Below, piece by piece: positions 3,293-62,350 of a stretch of DNA of 64,000 nt (positions are counted from its first letter, which is position 1; every line of letters begins with the position of its first letter). The notes under the pieces are model-generated. The model saw only the letters and a program-made list of their open reading frames with translations, had not been told where the DNA came from and made no database searches. The DNA lies in contig JAANWZ010000130.1 in assembly GCA_018263585.1 (NCBI GenBank), positions 14,062-78,061 of the forward strand, in the 5' to 3' direction. The position numbers and the translations under genes were made by a program. The stretch comes from Calditrichota bacterium (GTDB taxonomy: Bacteria > Electryoneota > Electryoneia > Electryoneales > Electryoneaceae).

Positions 3293-4324
3293 ATGCCCAC
3301 TGTAACAATAGACGGCAAGCAGGTCGAGGTCCCGGATGGACTGACCATCCTCTGGGCCGCGCGCAAGGCGGGCGTGAACATCCCGACGTACTGCTACTAC
3401 CCGTGGTTCGCGCCGCAGGGCAATTGCCGCATCTGTCTCGTCGAGGTGGAGGGGGTCGGCAAGCTCCAGATCGGGTGCCAGACGCCGGTGCGTGACGGGA
3501 TGGTCGTGCACACGAACAACGAGCGCGTGTTCAAGGCGCGCCGCGGGGTGATGGAGTTCCTGCTCCTGCACCACCCGCTCGACTGCCCGATCTGCGACCA
3601 GGCGGGCGAGTGCGATCTGCAGGACTACGGCTACAAATACGGTTTCCCGGTCGGCCGCAACCGGCATCTCCGGCGCACGTTCCCGAAGACCGACTACGGC
3701 GAGAAGATCTCGAAGGAGATGAACCGCTGCATCCACTGCCGGCGCTGCATCCGTCTCGCGGAAGACTACATGGGCGTGCACCACATCGGCATGCTCAACC
3801 GCGGCGACCACTCCGAGATCGGGTCGTACATCGAGGCGGCGATCCCGAGCGGCTGGGCCGGCAACGTGATCGACATCTGCCCGGTCGGTGCGCTCACCGA
3901 CAAGAAGATGCGTTTCTCCGCCCGGGTCTGGGACCTCGAGCATGTCCCCGCGCGGCTGAAGGAGAGCGCGATGAAGGACCCGGTCAAGTGCCGGTACGGC
4001 TCCGAGGCGATGCTCGGTCTCTACCGCGGCAAGATCTACCGGGTGACCGCGCGCATGGATGAGCACCGGGTGATGAAGTCGATGATCTGCGACGAGGCCC
4101 GGTTCGAGCACTACGACCTCGACGACTGGATCATCGAGGAGGACGCCGACATCACGACCCCGGTGGAGAGCGGGCCGCGCCCGGCACGGGAGCTGGAAGA
4201 AATGGCGCGCAAGGAGCTGGAAGAGGAAGGCAAACTGAACGGCGGGAGGGTCGAATCGCCCCCGCCATCCGAAATCAGCAGCGCGCCGGGCACAGGAATG
4301 GACCTCGGCAGGCAAACGGAGTGA
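3293..4324 (+). CDS. nuoG: NADH-quinone oxidoreductase subunit G, short form (Fe-S N-terminal domains only, 343 aa)
   Basis: N-terminal 2Fe-2S ferredoxin fold (CRICLVEV..GCQTP). HHPLDCPICDQAGECDLQ 4Fe-4S motif. CIHCRRCIR motif. No molybdopterin-like domain. Confidence 0.85.
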   Translation: MPTVTIDGKQVEVPDGLTILWAARKAGVNIPTYCYYPWFAPQGNCRICLVEVEGVGKLQIGCQTPVRDGMVVHTNNERVFKARRGVMEFLLLHHPLDCPICDQAGECDLQDYGYKYGFPVGRNRHLRRTFPKTDYGEKISKEMNRCIHCRRCIRLAEDYMGVHHIGMLNRGDHSEIGSYIEAAIPSGWAGNVIDICPVGALTDKKMRFSARVWDLEHVPARLKESAMKDPVKCRYGSEAMLGLYRGKIYRVTARMDEHRVMKSMICDEARFEHYDLDDWIIEEDADITTPVESGPRPARELEEMARKELEEEGKLNGGRVESPPPSEISSAPGTGMDLGRQTE

Positions 4325-4328
4325 GCGA

Positions 4329-5381
4329 ATGAGCGAGATCGGCGCGTTTCTCCTCGAAAAGACAGTCGTCGGGTCGGTGATGTTCGGGGTCACACTCGGC
4401 GTGGTTGCGTACGCGACACTCGGCGAGCGCAAGCTGTCCGGGTTCTTCCAGGACCGTCACGGGCCGAACCGCGCCGGGCCGTGGGGCCTGTTCCAGCCGA
4501 TCGCGGACGGCGTCAAGTTCTTCACGAAAGAGGAGTTCATCCCGGACCGCGCGAACAAGGCGCTGTTTGTGATCGCGCCCACGTTCACATTCATGGCCGC
4601 CGGGTTCCTGATCGCGGTGATCCCGTTCGGCGATCGGATCGTGGTCAACGGGCGCGAGATCCTGCTCCAGATCGCGGATGTCAACATCGGCATCCTCTAC
4701 ATCCTCGCGATCAGTTCGCTCGGGGTTTACGGCGTGATCACCGGCGGCTGGGCGTCGAACAACAAGTATTCGCTGATGGGCGGGCTGCGCTCATCGAGCC
4801 AGATGATCTCCTACGAGATCGCGATGGGACTCGCGGTCGTCGCGCTGCTCATCGATCACGGCACCCTCTCGCTGCGACAGATCGTGCTCAACCAGACCGG
4901 GCCGATCTGGCAGTGGAGCGTGTTCACCCACCCGCTCGGGTTCATCATCTTCTACGTGTCCGCGTTCGCGGAGGCGGCGCGGATCCCGTTCGACCTGCCC
5001 GAGGCGGAAAACGAACTCGTCGGCGGCTACCACACCGAGTACTCGGCGATGAAGTTCGGCCTGTTTCAGTTCGGCGAGTACACGCACATGACGCTCGCGA
5101 GCGGGTTGATCGCGACGCTCTACTTCGGCGGCTGGTCGATCCCGTGGCTGACAGCGCCGGCGGAGCCGACGGTCTGGTGGGGACTGCTCACGTTCGCTGT
5201 GTTCTGGATCAAGACGTTCTTCTTCATGTTCGTGTTCATCTGGGTGCGCTGGACGCTGCCGCGGTTCCGCTACGACCAGCTGATGGGACTCGGCTGGAAG
5301 AAGCTGATCCCGCTCGCAGTGCTCAACATCTTGGCGATGGCGGCGATCCTGATCGCCACCGGCGGCGCGGGGATGGAATGA
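4329..5381 (+). CDS. nuoH: NADH-quinone oxidoreductase subunit H (membrane)
   Basis: 350 aa polytopic membrane protein with NuoH/ND1-like sequence. Starts 5 nt after nuoG. Confidence 0.9.
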   Translation: MSEIGAFLLEKTVVGSVMFGVTLGVVAYATLGERKLSGFFQDRHGPNRAGPWGLFQPIADGVKFFTKEEFIPDRANKALFVIAPTFTFMAAGFLIAVIPFGDRIVVNGREILLQIADVNIGILYILAISSLGVYGVITGGWASNNKYSLMGGLRSSSQMISYEIAMGLAVVALLIDHGTLSLRQIVLNQTGPIWQWSVFTHPLGFIIFYVSAFAEAARIPFDLPEAENELVGGYHTEYSAMKFGLFQFGEYTHMTLASGLIATLYFGGWSIPWLTAPAEPTVWWGLLTFAVFWIKTFFFMFVFIWVRWTLPRFRYDQLMGLGWKKLIPLAVLNILAMAAILIATGGAGME

Positions 5382-5660
5382 TTCGACCACGGATAAAACG
5401 GATGGAACGGATATATGGACCACAGAACACAGGGAATACACGGAACGATTGACTTTAATTGTCTCCTGGCAGATGTTGCTGTTCTCCCTGTTGATTTTAT
5501 CGGTTCGGATGGTTAGAGCTGAACTTCACTTTTAGATGCTCAATTAAGTAGTTGCAATTTGCAATACGTTCATCTTTTATCCGTGTTTTCCGTATCATCC
5601 GTGGTCAGAGAATTTGTTTTCAGTGTATTCCGTGGTAAGAGAGGCAGACCGAGGCAATAG
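5382..5660 (+). promoter_or_regulatory. AT-rich (~40% GC) island inside the nuo operon with terminal inverted repeats and an ACGGAT motif array; possible internal promoter or operator
   Basis: GACCACGGAT...ATCCGTGGTC inverted ends (5385-5414 vs 5579-5606). At least 8 ACGGA/TCCGT motifs in either orientation. GC content far below the flanks. Confidence 0.4.
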
Positions 5661-6173
5661 ATGGCGAACACCGAAGTAAAGAGCGACCCGTTCCGCAAGT
5701 ATGATCTCACGCTCGCGGAGCGTTTGTATATCCCGGCGATCATGAAGGGGATGGGGGTGACCCTGTCGCATTTCTTCCGCAAGCCGGTCACCGTCCAGTA
5801 CCCGGAGCAGAAGCCGGAGATCAGCCACCGCTGGCGCGGGCGGCACGTGCTCAAGCGTGACGAGTTCGGCCGTGAACGCTGCGTCGGCTGCCAGATGTGC
5901 GAGCTCGCGTGCCCGGCGGATGCGATCACGATCCAGGCGGGCGAGGTGCCACCGGAGCGACGCCATCTGCACACGACCGAACGCTACGCGGTCACTTATG
6001 AAATAGACATGCTGCGCTGCATCTATTGCGGAATGTGCGAGGAGGCGTGCCCGGAGGCGGCAATCTTCCTCACACCGTTCTACGAGTTCGCCGAAGACAG
6101 CCGCGAGAAGCTGATTTACTCGAAAGAGATGCTGACCGAGAAGGTCGGCGGGCCGATATTCTACAAGGACTGA
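5661..6173 (+). CDS. nuoI: NADH-quinone oxidoreductase subunit I (2x 4Fe-4S ferredoxin)
   Basis: Two CxxCxxCxxxCP motifs (CVGCQMCELACP, CIYCGMCEEACP). GAGG RBS upstream. Confidence 0.9.
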   Translation: MANTEVKSDPFRKYDLTLAERLYIPAIMKGMGVTLSHFFRKPVTVQYPEQKPEISHRWRGRHVLKRDEFGRERCVGCQMCELACPADAITIQAGEVPPERRHLHTTERYAVTYEIDMLRCIYCGMCEEACPEAAIFLTPFYEFAEDSREKLIYSKEMLTEKVGGPIFYKD

Positions 6174-9167: not shown

Positions 9168-9309
9168 GTCATTCTGACGCCCGAAGGGCGGAAGAAGGTC
9201 CGAGTACGAAACCGGTGGTTACTGTCTGGATCACCCTTGCTGGAACTGGACCTTCCCTTCACTGCGTTCAGGATGAACTTCACGCCGCTGAGGCGGCGTT
9301 CAGAATGAC
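9168..9309. repeat. MITE/REP-like composite palindromic element, copy A
   Basis: Termini GTCATTCTGAC...GTTCAGAATGAC. Internal GAAGAAGGTCC / GGACCTTCCCTTCACTGCGTTCAGGA inverted pair. Confidence 0.8.
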
Positions 9310-9375
9310 GAAACGCCAACTGGATCGGAACTGGCAACAGTGGACCGGATCACATGAAACGACAGGTGACCGACC

Positions 9376-9529
9376 GTCATCCTGAAGCCGCGGGCGGCGT
9401 CAGTCTGCCCCACGCGACTGAAGGAGGTCCGAGTACGACGTCGGAGAGGCATGCATTTACAACCGTTTGTCTACCTGGACCTTCTTCACTACGCCCGATA
9501 AACTGAAATCGGGCTGCGTTCAGAATGAC
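9376..9529. repeat. MITE/REP-like element, copy B (tandem with A)
   Basis: GTCATCCTGAAGCC...GCGTTCAGAATGAC. Internal AAGGAGGTCC / GGACCTTCTTCACT. Confidence 0.8.
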
Positions 9530-9582
9530 GCAGAATCAGCTCTCGTTCCATGTGGTTTGTTCCGTTCATCAGGGAGACCACA

Positions 9583-11095: not shown

Positions 11096-11248
11096 GTCAT
11101 TCTGAAGCCGTGGCCGGTGTCCGTATACCGCCAACGGCTGAAGAAGGTCCAGATGCTGTACAGGTCAGCTATTCATAGAGACCGTCGGCGAACCGGGACC
11201 TTCTTCACTTCGTCCAGCAAACTAACGCTGGTCTTCGTTCAGAATGAC
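11096..11248. repeat. MITE/REP-like element, copy C
   Basis: GTCATTCTGAAGCC...CGTTCAGAATGAC. GAAGAAGGTCCA / GGACCTTCTTCACT. Confidence 0.8.
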
Positions 11249-11305
11249 GAATCATCTCCCGCCAGACCGTGTGGATTCGCCCATTAGGCCCTGAGGAGCC
11301 GACTC

Positions 11306-15269: not shown

Positions 15270-15458
15270 GCGGCGCCCGTTCTCGCCGGCGGCTCATGCT
15301 CTCGCCTCGACTACCCGAGCGGCGAGAATTCGGCGTTCCGAACTCCGTGAAACCCGAGCACTTTCGACGTATATTTATCGCTTGCGAGCATCCGGTTGTG
15401 CCGTTCGCTCAGCCACTTGCATGGGCCGGAACTTTGATCGCATCCGGACGGCCGAGCC

Positions 15459-15626
15459 GTCATTCTGAAGCCGGCTTCACGCGTCTGTCTGCGTGAAGGC
15501 GGGTGGAGAAGGTCCACGTTATCCAAGGGTCATTTCACGAGTTTCATGGTATCCTCCACCCTTGTCGAAGCTGGACCTTCTTCCCTTCGCCCGACAAACG
15601 GACGTCGGGCTTCGGTCAGAATGACG
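15459..15626. repeat. MITE/REP-like element, copy D
   Basis: GTCATTCTGAAGCC...GGTCAGAATGAC. Reverse complement of copy F. Confidence 0.8.
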
Positions 15627-15720
15627 CCCTTTCCACCCGCTATTTTGCTCCCGGCTGAGCCAAAGGGATGACCGGATGCGAGCAGGCGTCGAAGCGAGTG
15701 CAGCGTGTACGGAAGGGACG

Positions 15721-39034: not shown

Positions 39035-39171
39035 GATGGTTTCCCCGGGCGGCGTCCCGGTGCTGTGTCGTCGCGCCGGGCGAGGACGACTCACTTCCCT
39101 CGTGCGTGCACTTGCGAGCATTCGGTTATCCCTTTGGCTCAGCCGGGAGCAATATCGCGGGTGGCAAGGGT

Positions 39172-39363
39172 GTCATTCTGACCGAAGCCCGACGTCTTTT
39201 TGTCGGGCGAAGGGAAGAAGGTGCAGGTCTGACACGGGTGGAGGATACCATGAAACTCGTGAAATAACCCTTGGATAAGCTGGACCTTCTTTATCCGCGT
39301 TCACGCAAACAGACGCGTGAGGAGGGGACGCTTGCTGGCAAGCGTCCCCACAGCCAGAATGAC
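39172..39363. repeat. MITE/REP-like element, copy F (inverse orientation of D; carries a nested 26-bp palindrome)
   Basis: About 85% identical to the reverse complement of D. GGGGACGCTTGCTGGCAAGCGTCCCC is inserted near one end. Confidence 0.8.
39324..39349. repeat. 26-bp perfect palindrome GGGGACGCTTGC-TG-GCAAGCGTCCCC (nested in element F)
   Basis: Seen directly. Confidence 0.85.
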
Positions 39364-39473
39364 GCCTCTGCCACCCGGGTGTGCTTCAGAGTCCGGTCCA
39401 TGCACGTGGCTGAGCGAACGGTATAACCCGTTGCCGGCAGGCGTCCCTTTTTCGAGGAAGACTCAATCCACCG

Positions 39474-40637
39474 ATGGCGATAAAGACGACAGAAAAGCGG
39501 GTCGGCGTGCTGATGAGCGGCGGGGTGGACAGCTCCGTCGCGGCGGCGCTGCTGAAGCGGAAGGGATATCACGTTGTCGGCGTCACGCTCCAGCTCTGGG
39601 ATTATGAAACCAACGGACGGCGTCCCCCGGGCGAGCGCGGCTGCTGCGACATCTCGCACCAGATGGACGCCCGCTTCGTCTGCCACCATCTCGGCGTCGA
39701 ACACGTCGTCCTCGACCTGCGTGACGCCTTCCGCCGCGCGGTGGTCGGGCCCTACGAAAACGCCTACCTTTCCGGGAGAACGCCGAATCCGTGCATCGCC
39801 TGTAACACGCACATCAAGTGGGCGGAGGTGATCAGGCGCGCGCCGGTGTTCGGGCTCGATTTCATCGCGACCGGCCACTACGCGCGCGTGGTTCGCGGCC
39901 GGGACGGCGTCCGGCTCGAGAAGGGCGTCGATCGCGCGAAGGACCAGAGCTACGCGCTGTGGCAGATCCCGCGGCACGTGCTCGCGCGCACGATCTTCCC
40001 GCTCGGCACGTGGACGAAGCGTTCGATACGGGAAGAGGCGCGTCAGCTCGGCCTGCGCACGGCCGACAAGCCCGAGAGCCAGGAGGTCTGCTTCATCGAC
40101 GGCCGCTACGACGAGCACCTGCGCGAGGAGTACGCGGACCGGGTTTCGCGGATCGGCGCGGGCGAGATCGTGGACACCGCGGGGCGCACGCTCGGCGGGC
40201 ACAGCGGCTTTTTCTCGTTTACGATCGGCCAGCGGAAAGGGCTCGACATTTCCGACGGCCGGGGCCCGTATTACGTGACCGAGCTCGACGCGGCGCGTAA
40301 CCGGGTCGTCGTCGGCGACCGCCGTTCGCTCGCGCGCACAGGCCTCGTCGCGGTCGAGCCGAACTGGGTGTCGTTCGACCCGCCGGAGCGGCCGGAGCGG
40401 TGCGCGGTGAAGGTGCGCTACAATGACCCGGCCGGCGCGCCCGCGACCGTGCATCCGCCTGAAGATGGACGCGTGCTGATTCGGTTCGACAACCCGGTCG
40501 ATGCGGTCACCCCCGGCCAGTCCGCGGTCTGGTATCGCGGAAACGCCGTCTGGGGCGGCGGAATCATCAGCCGCGCGTTGAAGGACGGTGACGCGGCGGC
40601 AGACAGTCACAGGATGAACCTCGAGGCAGACTGGTGA
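39474..40637 (+). CDS. mnmA: tRNA-specific 2-thiouridylase
   Basis: PP-loop SGGVDSSVAA. Catalytic Cys motifs. Full-length MnmA. Confidence 0.88.
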   Translation: MAIKTTEKRVGVLMSGGVDSSVAAALLKRKGYHVVGVTLQLWDYETNGRRPPGERGCCDISHQMDARFVCHHLGVEHVVLDLRDAFRRAVVGPYENAYLSGRTPNPCIACNTHIKWAEVIRRAPVFGLDFIATGHYARVVRGRDGVRLEKGVDRAKDQSYALWQIPRHVLARTIFPLGTWTKRSIREEARQLGLRTADKPESQEVCFIDGRYDEHLREEYADRVSRIGAGEIVDTAGRTLGGHSGFFSFTIGQRKGLDISDGRGPYYVTELDAARNRVVVGDRRSLARTGLVAVEPNWVSFDPPERPERCAVKVRYNDPAGAPATVHPPEDGRVLIRFDNPVDAVTPGQSAVWYRGNAVWGGGIISRALKDGDAAADSHRMNLEADW

Positions 40638-40788
40638 AAAAGGCGTGATCGTCCGTCATGCTGAACGAAGTGAAGCAGGTCCAGGTTCGCAAAGGGTCGG
40701 TCTCATAAGCCAACCTGTTGATAACTCGGATCTTTCCTTCACTGCGTTCAGGACATGCTTCCGCCGCCTGCGGCGGCGTCAGAATGAC
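40638..40788. repeat. MITE/REP-like element, copy G
   Basis: GGCGTGATC..GTCATGCTGAACGAAGTGAAGCAGGTCCAGGTT...GGATCTTTCCTTCACTGCGTTCAGGACATG...GTCAGAATGAC. Confidence 0.85.
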
Positions 40789-40856
40789 ATGCCACCGGCG
40801 GTCGGCGGTTCATCAAGCTGGAAATACTTCATCAACAGTCTCGATGGGGAGCGCTG

Positions 40857-43308: not shown

Positions 43309-43908
43309 ATGAGACGACTTGGAACTGCAATTGTGCTGGCGGTGCTGCTCTCCGTCGCGACGTTCGACGGCGCGTACGGCCAGTCTCCCTACCGTGATAC
43401 GAAACCGCCGACGACCACCGAAACCCTGCGCCAGCCCGTGATCGATGACGGTGGTCAGGGGTTCTCCGGCCTGCTCGATCTGTCGCGCCTCTCGATGGAC
43501 CACCAGTTCGGAATGGGCTACATGAGCAGCGGCGGGCGCGGGTACACGCAGGGCTACTATCTGAACACGCTCACCTACCGGTTCAACGCGCCGGTGCTGC
43601 TGCGTCTGCGCACGGGAGTGACGAACAACCCGTTCGCGCAGAGCGGCTCGATGACCCGGCCCGGGCAGTCCGCGATGAGCGCGTTTTTCAACAACGCCGA
43701 GTTCTTCGGCGGCGCCGACCTGCTCTGGAAACCGAGCGAGAACACGCGGCTGATGATTTCGGTCGAGCGCACGCCGCCGGGTATGTTCGGCGGCGGGAGG
43801 TACGTGAACCCGTACGGCTCGCCGGGCTTCTGGAATCGGGGCGGCTTCGGAGCCTATCACCCGGCGTACGGCTTCGACGACCCGGGCTTCGACCCGCACC
43901 GGAATTAG
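43309..43908 (+). CDS. Secreted Gly-rich hypothetical protein
   Basis: GGAGGA RBS. Signal peptide. Good GC3. No family recognised. Confidence 0.45.
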   Translation: MRRLGTAIVLAVLLSVATFDGAYGQSPYRDTKPPTTTETLRQPVIDDGGQGFSGLLDLSRLSMDHQFGMGYMSSGGRGYTQGYYLNTLTYRFNAPVLLRLRTGVTNNPFAQSGSMTRPGQSAMSAFFNNAEFFGGADLLWKPSENTRLMISVERTPPGMFGGGRYVNPYGSPGFWNRGGFGAYHPAYGFDDPGFDPHRN

Positions 43909-43943
43909 CGGACCGAATCACATGAAACGAGGTTTGATATTGC

Positions 43944-44120
43944 GTCATTCTGAACGCAGCCCGATGTCAGTTTATCGGGCGCAGTGAAGTTTATCCTGAA
44001 CGAAGTGAAGGGAAGGTCCAGGTAGATAAACTGTTGTAAATGCATATATTACCGATGTCATACTCGGACCTTTCCTTCACTGCCTTCAGGACATGCTTCA
44101 GCCGCGTGCGGCAAACTGAC
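43944..44120. repeat. MITE/REP-like element, modular copy H
   Basis: GTCATTCTGAACGCAGCCCGAT..ATCGGGCGCAGTGAAG module, then the CTGAACGAAGTGAAGGGAAGGTCCAGGT...GGACCTTTCCTTCACTGCCTTCAGGACATG module. Confidence 0.75.
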
Positions 44121-44239
44121 GCCGGCCGCGGCTTCAGGGTGACCGTGAGTCACCCGTTGTTCCATGTGATCCGGTCCACGAGCGGCGTGTGAGGACCGGC
44201 GGTTCGATCTGACGAGATGAGGGGGAGGTCCGGAACAGC

Positions 44240-62020: not shown

Positions 62021-62085
62021 ATCCCGGCGGATTCGACCGGCGGCTTGCCGCGGGCGACGCCGCGGATGCACATTCCGAGGACTGC

Positions 62086-62239
62086 TGGAAAAGGCGTGAT
62101 CCTTCGTCATGCTGAACGAAGTGAAGCAGGTCCAGGTTTGAAGACGGTCGTACATATGACTCAACCTGTTGATAACTCGGACCTTTCCTTCACTGCGTTC
62201 AGGACATGGTTCCGCCGCCTGCGGCGGCGTCAGAATGAC
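62086..62239. repeat. MITE/REP-like element, copy I (about 90% identical to G)
   Basis: Collinear with G apart from a diverged central ~30 bp. Confidence 0.85.
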
Positions 62240-62350
62240 ACGTCACCGACGGTGGGCGGTTTTTCGATCCTGGAGTACTTTTTCGACAGTCTCTTCTCGT
62301 AGCAGTGCGGGGGGACCGAGGCCGTCCGACAATCCGAAAAGGGAGGTACG

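Follow-up and report, generated by a model that had tools for sequence, protein, structure and literature searches.

The AT-rich spacer that separates nuoH from nuoI in the nuo operon is best explained as an insertion. We assign a probability of about 0.7 to the reading that positions 5385-5637 of the window, as we call the whole 64-kb stretch of DNA analysed here, are a gene-less copy, non-autonomous or decayed, of a palindromic repeat family that is dispersed across phyla, and that this copy sits passively in the nuo operon. Sequence comparison places the element in a family built on arrays of CACGGAT units, in which it represents an AACGGAT subtype behind a GACC head, and indicates that it was inserted, relative to the closest relatives, into a spacer that was originally short. 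The copy in the window carries no gene. The spacer as a whole (5382-5660, 279 nt) lies between two genes that the ORF calls place on the plus strand, and is composed as follows:

4329..5381, plus strand: nuoH, ORF, context gene
5385..5413, plus strand: left arm U1, GACCACGGATAAAACGGATGGAACGGATA, made of three 9-nt units, each with its ACGGAT core intact
5418..5444, plus strand: second left arm U2, degenerate, GACCACAGAACACAGGGAATACACGGA, ACGGA retained in the third unit only
5445..5577, no strand: AT-rich interior, 38.3% G+C
5578..5606, minus strand: right arm U3, inverted partner of U1, GACCACGGATGATACGGAAAACACGGATA on the minus strand
5615..5642, minus strand: outer right arm U4, degenerate, a 31-nt tandem duplicate of 5584-5611 that takes in the flank AGAGA
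5638..5660, plus strand: remnant of the native spacer with the ribosome-binding region of nuoI, AGAGAGG...GAGG, matching the aTAGAGAGGt found before nuoI in relatives
5661..6173, plus strand: nuoI, ORF, context gene

The stop codon of nuoH (TGA, 5379-5381) is native, the C-terminus that precedes it (...TGGAGME*) being similar to that of a relative (...TGGAGSN* in L225), and the insert begins 3 nt downstream. At the other end, the conservation of the aTAGAGAGGt region places the right boundary of the insert near position 5637. The insert has a G+C content of 41.5%, against 65.2% for the window, with a further drop in the interior (5445-5577), and the bin 5401-5600 (41%) is the minimum among all 200-nt bins of the 64-kb window. 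The initial annotation had described a spacer of approximately 40% G+C with inverted-repeat ends and at least eight copies of ACGGA/TCCGT, and was accurate in each respect: eight cores were found, and the coordinates it gave for the arms (here 5385-5413 and 5578-5606) are correct within 2 nt.

In a repeat search, the arms U1 and U3 are 29 nt long, 79% complementary and 164 nt apart. Cores lie at 5389, 5398, 5407 and 5440 (ACGGA on the plus strand) and at 5580, 5589, 5598 and 5629 (TCCGT). The units of the arms follow a strict period of 9 nt, a feature absent from the initial annotation, as is the degenerate second arm on each side (5418-5444 on the plus strand and 5615-5642 on the minus strand). 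U2 is still approximately 80% identical to arms at other loci, and the outer right arm originates from a tandem duplication of 31 nt (5584-5611 versus 5615-5642, 82% identical). None of the six ACGGA cores in U1 and U3 is altered: the two arms differ by six mismatches, all located outside the cores, five affecting spacer bases between the units and the sixth the T that follows the middle core (GGAT in U1, GGAA in U3). The word ACGGAT as such is not enriched in the window (35 occurrences observed versus 42 expected), five of the 35 lying within 214 nt. Triple ACGGA cores with the 9-nt period occur at only two sites in the window, 5389 on the plus strand and 5580 on the minus strand, and never in shuffled sequences; similarly, the 19-mer GACCACGGATAAAACGGAT, when allowing up to three mismatches, is found in the window only at the U1 and U3 sites (0.01 expected). 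The array in the spacer is not a chance pattern. Within the interior, the stretch 5495-5510 (TTTTATCGGT followed by TCGGATGG) resembles two abutting degenerate units, one of a right arm and one of a left arm, and the 222-nt element may consist of two decayed hairpins side by side, as judged from matches of 10 nt only.

Both U1 and U3 fit the family pattern GACCACGGATNNNACGGANNNNACGGA, with at least three units, an ACGGA(T) core and a GACC head. This pattern (27 nt, 20 of them specified bases) was scanned against GTDB with one genome per species (596 Gb), for which chance alone would, by our own arithmetic, yield approximately one match (2 x 596 Gb / 4^20). A search for ACGGAT arrays elsewhere had been proposed as a check in the initial annotation; the 9-nt triple, confined in the window to the two arms of the element, has its counterpart in GTDB in the 27-nt arm GACCACGGATnnCACGGATnnCACGGAT, which occurs at at least 119 loci from approximately 96 assemblies. 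Among the matches listed, these belong mostly to Verrucomicrobiota and Planctomycetota, and further to Chloroflexota (Caldilineae/Anaerolineae), Acidobacteriota, Bacteroidota, Hydrogenedentota, Lentisphaerota, Kiritimatiellota, Nitrospirota and a few more. Where the pattern specified no base, C (88%), T (87%) and C (83%) still predominate in the matches listed, which defines the unit as CACGGATnn. An arm is often preceded by a T-run, its partner then being followed by an A-run, and the palindrome is thereby longer; as these flanks are inverted, they are part of the palindrome itself. An inverted partner (at least 20/27 complementary) lies within 1.5 kb of 72 of the 137 arms among the matches listed, when random 27-mers average 15.7. 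Again among the matches listed, the arms stand 0-30 nt apart in 34 cases and 31-100 nt apart in 16; gaps of 101-250 nt, the range to which the window element belongs, were counted 11 times and gaps of 251-700 nt 10 times, and 24 of the listed family members have a spacing of 91-300 nt, comparable to the 164 nt in the window. The arms are encountered as short hairpins, as non-coding palindromes of 100-300 nt such as that of the window, and as flanks of a gene for a GxxExxY protein of approximately 125 aa. By the strict pattern, several assemblies among the matches listed contain two to four separate loci; the 64-kb window holds one copy of the element, and no second one was found in it by the triple-core and 19-mer searches. 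The arm sequences were not encountered in the searchable literature, whose coverage is incomplete, and we provisionally consider the repeat family as apparently undescribed.

Several loci of the family display further arrangements. In an uncultured bacterium (L020, 3506-3928), at least eight copies of a 44-nt unit that holds a whole 27-nt CACGGAT arm follow each other head to tail. Other periodic arrays (CACAGAAGG/CACAAAAAG, CACGAAT and heptamer runs) are nested in CACGGAT elements or abut them at L024, L085, L105, L039, L032, L009 and L031, and this nesting suggests mutual insertion among several array families. At L219 (~1425-1490), L004 (137-163) and L076 (~1860-1900), arms overlap the ends of ORFs or lie inside them and read (Thr-Asp-x)n. 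Since the 9-nt period amounts to three codons, in-frame insertions would be tolerated, a likeness to the in-frame insertions tolerated in ORFs in the case of the Rickettsia palindromic elements.

The arms are physically linked to genes encoding GxxExxY proteins. In the 300-700-nt class, a protein of approximately 125 aa is encoded between the arms in either orientation (L036, L038, L089, L103, L120), and decayed remnants of such genes lie between the arms at L068 and L113. A profile search detected 13 GxxExxY genes or remnants in the loci derived from the pattern, all of them within approximately 125 nt of an arm and nine with arms on both sides; this is the only recurrent family of small ORFs adjoining the arms, no other recurrent cargo gene being found next to them among these loci. 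Arrangements of the type arm+ arm- gene arm- are common. When GxxExxY genes were fetched by protein sequence alone, all five were flanked by C[AG]CGGAT hairpins, their contexts being a gap between glycosyltransferase and GAPDH genes, two type I restriction-modification operons, and the vicinity of mutL and of an ankyrin gene. Six out of seven more distant homologues (30-39% identical, on viral contigs) have flanking inverted periodic arrays made of other units (CACGAA, ACGGAAT, CGCAGAT, TTACTTAAAAT, AAGAAAATT). In a blind test, flanking inverted repeats reaching at least 21/25 were present at 10 of 13 unbiased GxxExxY genes, with 300 random pseudo-genes as control attaining a maximum of 20 and a mean of 16.2. 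From the protein-first and blind-test results, the architecture of a small nuclease gene between inverted arrays of short units is thus a property of the protein family, beyond the CACGGAT subfamily. A divergent GxxExxY protein (37% identical) lies between standard CACGGAT arms at L036, which weakens a simple specificity of one protein for one unit. The cassettes located in type I restriction-modification operons (L211 and L219) occupy a gap between hsdS and hsdM or lie beside a DUF1016/YhcG gene, and two PDDEXK_3 genes occur in a stretch of 1.5 kb at L211.

The cassette protein corresponds to TIGR04256 ("GxxExxY protein", E-values of 1e-37 to 1e-42) and to PF13366 (PDDEXK_3), a Cas4/RecB-like PD-(D/E)XK nuclease family. 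The residues kept in 30 close homologues (E37, P65-D66, D76-x-K78 and Q90-x3-Y94) are the catalytic set of PD-(D/E)XK enzymes and the QxxxY motif of the RecB/Cas4 group. Unlike Cas4 and RecB nucleases, the GxxExxY protein is a minimal core of 125 aa devoid of an Fe-S cluster module, and its genes are not found beside cas genes and form many paralogues, each within repeat arrays. A search by sequence gave no structural relative in the PDB, and no PADLOC defence model matched the protein. The family is large, PF13366/TIGR04256 comprising 9,848 clusters at 50% identity (E-values up to 0.001); in the searchable literature, PDDEXK_3 is listed as of unknown function and the term "GxxExxY" occurs in three papers, in at least one of them incidentally. 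Members of the subfamily linked to CACGGAT are 78-88% identical across phyla, which suggests frequent horizontal transfer.

In the window, the interior of the element (5445-5577) has no ORF with homologues. No remnant of a GxxExxY gene was detected in the spacer, neither by a filter-free profile search (best E-value 0.23) nor by blastp against the protein encoded at the same position in the relative L123 (see below), and a profile search found no GxxExxY gene anywhere in the 64-kb window. The interior has no similarity to the other fetched loci or to the rest of the window, its sole match being the same locus in a near-identical strain. With neither a remnant nor a likeness to other interiors, a decayed cassette is here indistinguishable from a gene-less insertion. 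No target-site duplication is visible at the window element, which is flanked by TGATTC before GACC on the left and by AGAGAG after GGTA on the right.

The lineage is poorly sampled, with only approximately 14 NuoI relatives at 73% identity or more, the next ones being Bacteroidota at 57%. Comparison of the nuoH-nuoI junction in these relatives, also proposed in the initial annotation, revealed three states. In six of them (L121, L122, L225, L226/L227, L228 and L230), the spacer measures 9-113 nt and has no array, often containing a small simple hairpin together with the conserved aTAGAGAGGt ribosome-binding region. In L123, an AT-rich relative with 84% NuoI identity, the spacer of approximately 470 nt holds a cassette, i.e., a GxxExxY ORF (PF13366, E-value 1.5e-41) between inverted arrays of four 8-9-nt AGGAT units; this ORF (2071-2442) contains one in-frame TAA, which may reflect a pseudogene, a sequencing error or recoding. 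In L124, a relic is left: a 23-aa remnant of the GxxExxY gene of L123 (E-value 4e-8), in the same orientation, and a fragment of the right arm. An element is found in the nuoH-nuoI spacer in three out of nine cases (window, L123, L124), an occupancy not easily reconciled with random insertion and which could reflect a preference for the site or a function for the host. The near-identical strain (Logan contig L001) has the same right half of the element and an identical NuoI; it differs from the window at 3 of 127 spacer bases (5560, 5649, 5656) and at none of 1,399 in nuoI-nuoK, which indicates that the spacer evolves faster than its flanks. Contig sets that are 98.5-100% identical showed no insertion polymorphism of the arms. 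The gap between nuoI and nuoJ in L226/L227 has received a DUF6713 gene (2016-2396), which further indicates that nuo spacers accept insertions in this group. We also observed that NuoG of the window (3293-4324) is only 343 aa long and consists of the Fe-S domains only; relatives are alike in this respect (341 aa in L225), and the short NuoG is therefore a trait of the lineage.

These comparisons could also be accommodated by a single event, in which one ancient insertion of a GxxExxY cassette was inherited vertically, staying nearly intact in L123, decaying to a relic in L124 and to mere arms in the window, and being lost in the six others, the arms being kept by selection or gene conversion. 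We regard this scenario as possible, though less likely than not. It accounts for the occupation of the spacer in three of nine cases, for the gene and orientation shared by L123 and L124, and for the fact that a profile search of 80 fetched nuo loci (310 kb) found no GxxExxY gene other than that of L123. However, the NuoH+NuoI tree is star-like, every occupied genome having neighbors whose sites are empty, and several precise losses would therefore be needed. Moreover, the units differ, being ACGGAT in the window and AGGAT in L123 and L124, and no trace of the gene is seen in the interior of the window copy, in spite of arm cores that are intact. Another possible history, favored by the differing unit types, is that of independent insertions into a hot spot or preferred landing site between nuoH and nuoI.

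Compatible with an origin by insertion is a later co-option of the element as an RNA structure in the nuo mRNA, where it might act as an RNase III-type site or as a stability barrier that uncouples the amounts of nuoA-H and nuoI-N, much as the stems bordering 23S rRNA intervening sequences undergo processing. A panhandle is indeed strongly predicted on the plus strand (-73 kcal/mol, z -4.0), U1 pairing with U3 through 23 Watson-Crick and 2 G-U pairs out of 29. Small hairpins are also found in the empty spacers of relatives, the same spacer is occupied in three relatives, and the arm cores are intact around an unrecognisable interior. Yet the fold of the antisense strand is just as good (-70 kcal/mol, z -5.4, U1 again pairing with U3), the transcribed strand thus not being favored and nothing pointing to selection on RNA. 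Across 31 hairpins of the family, mismatches comprise 27 G-T, 24 A-C and 58 others, i.e., no excess of wobble pairs, and the variable positions are Watson-Crick in 79 out of 124 cases, the motif being better conserved than the pairing. With Rfam 15 at gathering score, the window and 15 family loci gave no match for the element and one tRNA elsewhere (in L047), and the E-value mode, applied to the spacer and a model hairpin, returned only generic, sub-threshold miRNA-like hairpins. Six relatives, finally, do without the element. Such a co-option thus seems unlikely to us, and a dedicated regulatory role probably does not exist; given the equal folding of both strands, we regard the window element as a tolerated passenger.

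Three readings had been offered in the initial annotation, namely an internal promoter for nuoI-N with an array of transcription-factor binding sites, a mobile element unrelated to the GTCATTCTGA repeat family of the window, or a horizontally acquired remnant. The mobile or acquired nature is borne out by the insertion relative to relatives and by the membership in a cross-phylum repeat family, and the element shares nothing with the GTCATTCTGA family, as had been proposed; the link to GxxExxY cassettes, and their presence in the same spacer in relatives, were out of reach of the initial annotation. The promoter, with the ACGGAT units as operators for a host transcription factor, is not supported, and we deem it very improbable. 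It had in its favor that promoters often lie in AT-rich DNA when the genome is GC-rich, that a weak -35/-10-like pair is present (TTGCAA at 5553, 17 nt, TTTTAT at 5576), and that the regular spacing of the units resembles an operator array. However, no sigma-70-like promoter was found on either strand in a scan of 5200-5800, a region in which three terminator-like sites were detected, all inside nuoI and none in the spacer. The array is missing in six relatives, and the 9-nt period would present successive sites on different faces of the helix. An identical array is found in more than 100 unrelated contexts in many phyla, flanking a nuclease gene, and it is therefore not a nuo-specific operator. 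The spacer is most likely a relic of a selfish element and not a purpose-built promoter.

The tight linkage of a small nuclease gene to short repeat arrays might also evoke a type III-like toxin-antitoxin system, with the arrays as RNA partners that neutralise the nuclease and the solo hairpins as orphan antitoxin-like RNAs, but we give this almost no credence, as the gene has inverted arrays on either side instead of a direct one upstream, each unit measures only 9 nt, the Cas4/RecB-like fold points to DNA ends and not to an endoribonuclease, and PADLOC gave no match. Two further candidates were rejected. A sponge for CsrA-type regulators binding GGA motifs was discarded as the GGA cores lie in the paired arms, not in loops, and as the units are tied to a nuclease gene; a cluster of DnaA boxes (TTATCCGTG versus TTATCCACA) was dropped given the cross-phylum palindromic context.

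Among known systems, REP/REPIN-RAYT is the closest analogue in logic, the RAYT being an HUH Y1 transposase related to those of IS200/IS605. As in that system, we find short extragenic palindromes, with two to four loci in several of the assemblies among the matches listed, inverted doublets that form hairpins, an associated nuclease gene flanked by the repeats, gene-less copies that far outnumber the gene-bearing ones, no target duplication, and tolerance inside operons; the gene-less hairpins would by analogy parallel REPINs or MITEs in their relation to autonomous partners. However, two defining features are absent, as the family has neither a GTAG/CGTC head nor an HUH enzyme. Its arms start with GACCAC behind a (T)nGACC head and are arrays of 9-nt units instead of a single imperfect palindrome, whereas the palindromes of tagged REP families are headed by a GTAG or CGTC tetranucleotide (PMC3733652). 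Its partner is a PD-(D/E)XK Cas4/RecB-like nuclease, not an HUH tyrosine transposase, and its arm sequence is nearly the same across phyla, when a given REP is usually confined to one species or genus (PMC3733652).

The terminal inverted arms, the small size, the AT-rich non-coding interior, the intergenic position and the existence of longer relatives that have the same arms and carry a gene also recall MITEs. The window element indeed has terminal inverted repeats, a small size and no coding capacity, and the longer elements with the same arms, which would take the place of the cognate autonomous elements, encode GxxExxY and not a known transposase. The multiple short repeated sites at each end resemble the subterminal transposase-binding arrays of Tn7, Mu and Ac/Ds. 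What sets the family apart from MITEs and transposons is that no target-site duplication is seen in the element and that no DDE, serine or tyrosine transposase is involved, the linked gene encoding a 125-aa nuclease without known transposition activity. The intervening sequences of 23S rRNA (23S_rRNA_IVP/four-helix-bundle) share with the family a small, selfish-looking ORF placed between stem-forming inverted repeats in an essential, highly expressed unit, which is not destroyed by the insertion, and their flanking stems are processed; GxxExxY proteins may themselves be linked to intervening sequences, as a database comment has it. In our case, by contrast, the host is an mRNA spacer, the protein family is another one, and the stem is predicted only.

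A second dispersed repeat, unrelated to the element, is present in the window. Its copies, with the core CGTCATTCTGAACG..., lie at 9240-9570, 11160-11256, 15379-15684, 39113-39443, 40629-40842, 43904-44179 and 62080-62293, and two of them fill the nuoL/nuoM and nuoM/nuoN spacers. The CGTC head of this CGTCATTCTGAACG family recalls the CGTC-tagged REP superfamily (PMC3733652).

Returning to the family of the nuoH-nuoI element, its intact members carry the GxxExxY gene (approximately 125 aa), either between the arms or beside them, and we propose that the unit arrays would serve as multi-site recognition sequences, most likely for the flanking GxxExxY nuclease. This is suggested by a motif that outlasts the pairing, by mismatches without wobble bias, and by unit sequences that differ between protein subfamilies. 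The nuclease may also be responsible for the movement of the arrays. Gene-less hairpins could result from the loss of the gene from cassettes, perhaps by recombination between arms in the same orientation, as the common arm+ arm- gene arm- arrangements would permit, or they could have been moved in trans. As for the copy in the window, it would be co-transcribed with the nuo operon, and the panhandle formed by its arms would keep the nuoH stop codon and the ribosome-binding site of nuoI close to each other, which may be why the operon tolerates it. It is most likely a non-autonomous or decayed member of the cassette family, passive in the nuo transcript. It is the dispersal, the nesting and the patchy occupancy of the elements that point to mobility; against active movement speak the missing target duplication and the lack of filled and empty alleles among the contigs that are 98.5-100% identical. 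More broadly, GxxExxY genes and their flanking arrays of 9-nt units might constitute an undescribed class of selfish elements found across phyla, a PD-(D/E)XK counterpart of REP/RAYT in which the nuclease recognises the arrays and mobilises or maintains both cassettes and hairpins, with the nuoH-nuoI spacer as a recurrent landing site and the window element as one gene-less copy. We put this forward as a conjecture, short of even odds.

Once the unusual AT-rich island of this essential operon is explained as an insertion, an internal nuo promoter is no longer needed. The element of the window in itself appears as an ordinary relic, and the novelty seems to lie in the family of mini-nucleases and unit arrays, REP-like in kind. 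The analysis exposes PF13366/TIGR04256 as a large family of unknown function whose genes are embedded in inverted arrays of short units, with gene-less palindromes scattered over phyla. Such repeats are likely to fragment metagenome assemblies and to mislead gene calling, some arms appearing as (Thr-Asp-x)n at the ends of ORFs. If the nuclease does act on the arrays, this would represent a new enzymatic route to REP-like genome repeats and would provide the GxxExxY family with a function; as the units differ between subfamilies, it would also offer nuclease/array pairs that are programmable by sequence.
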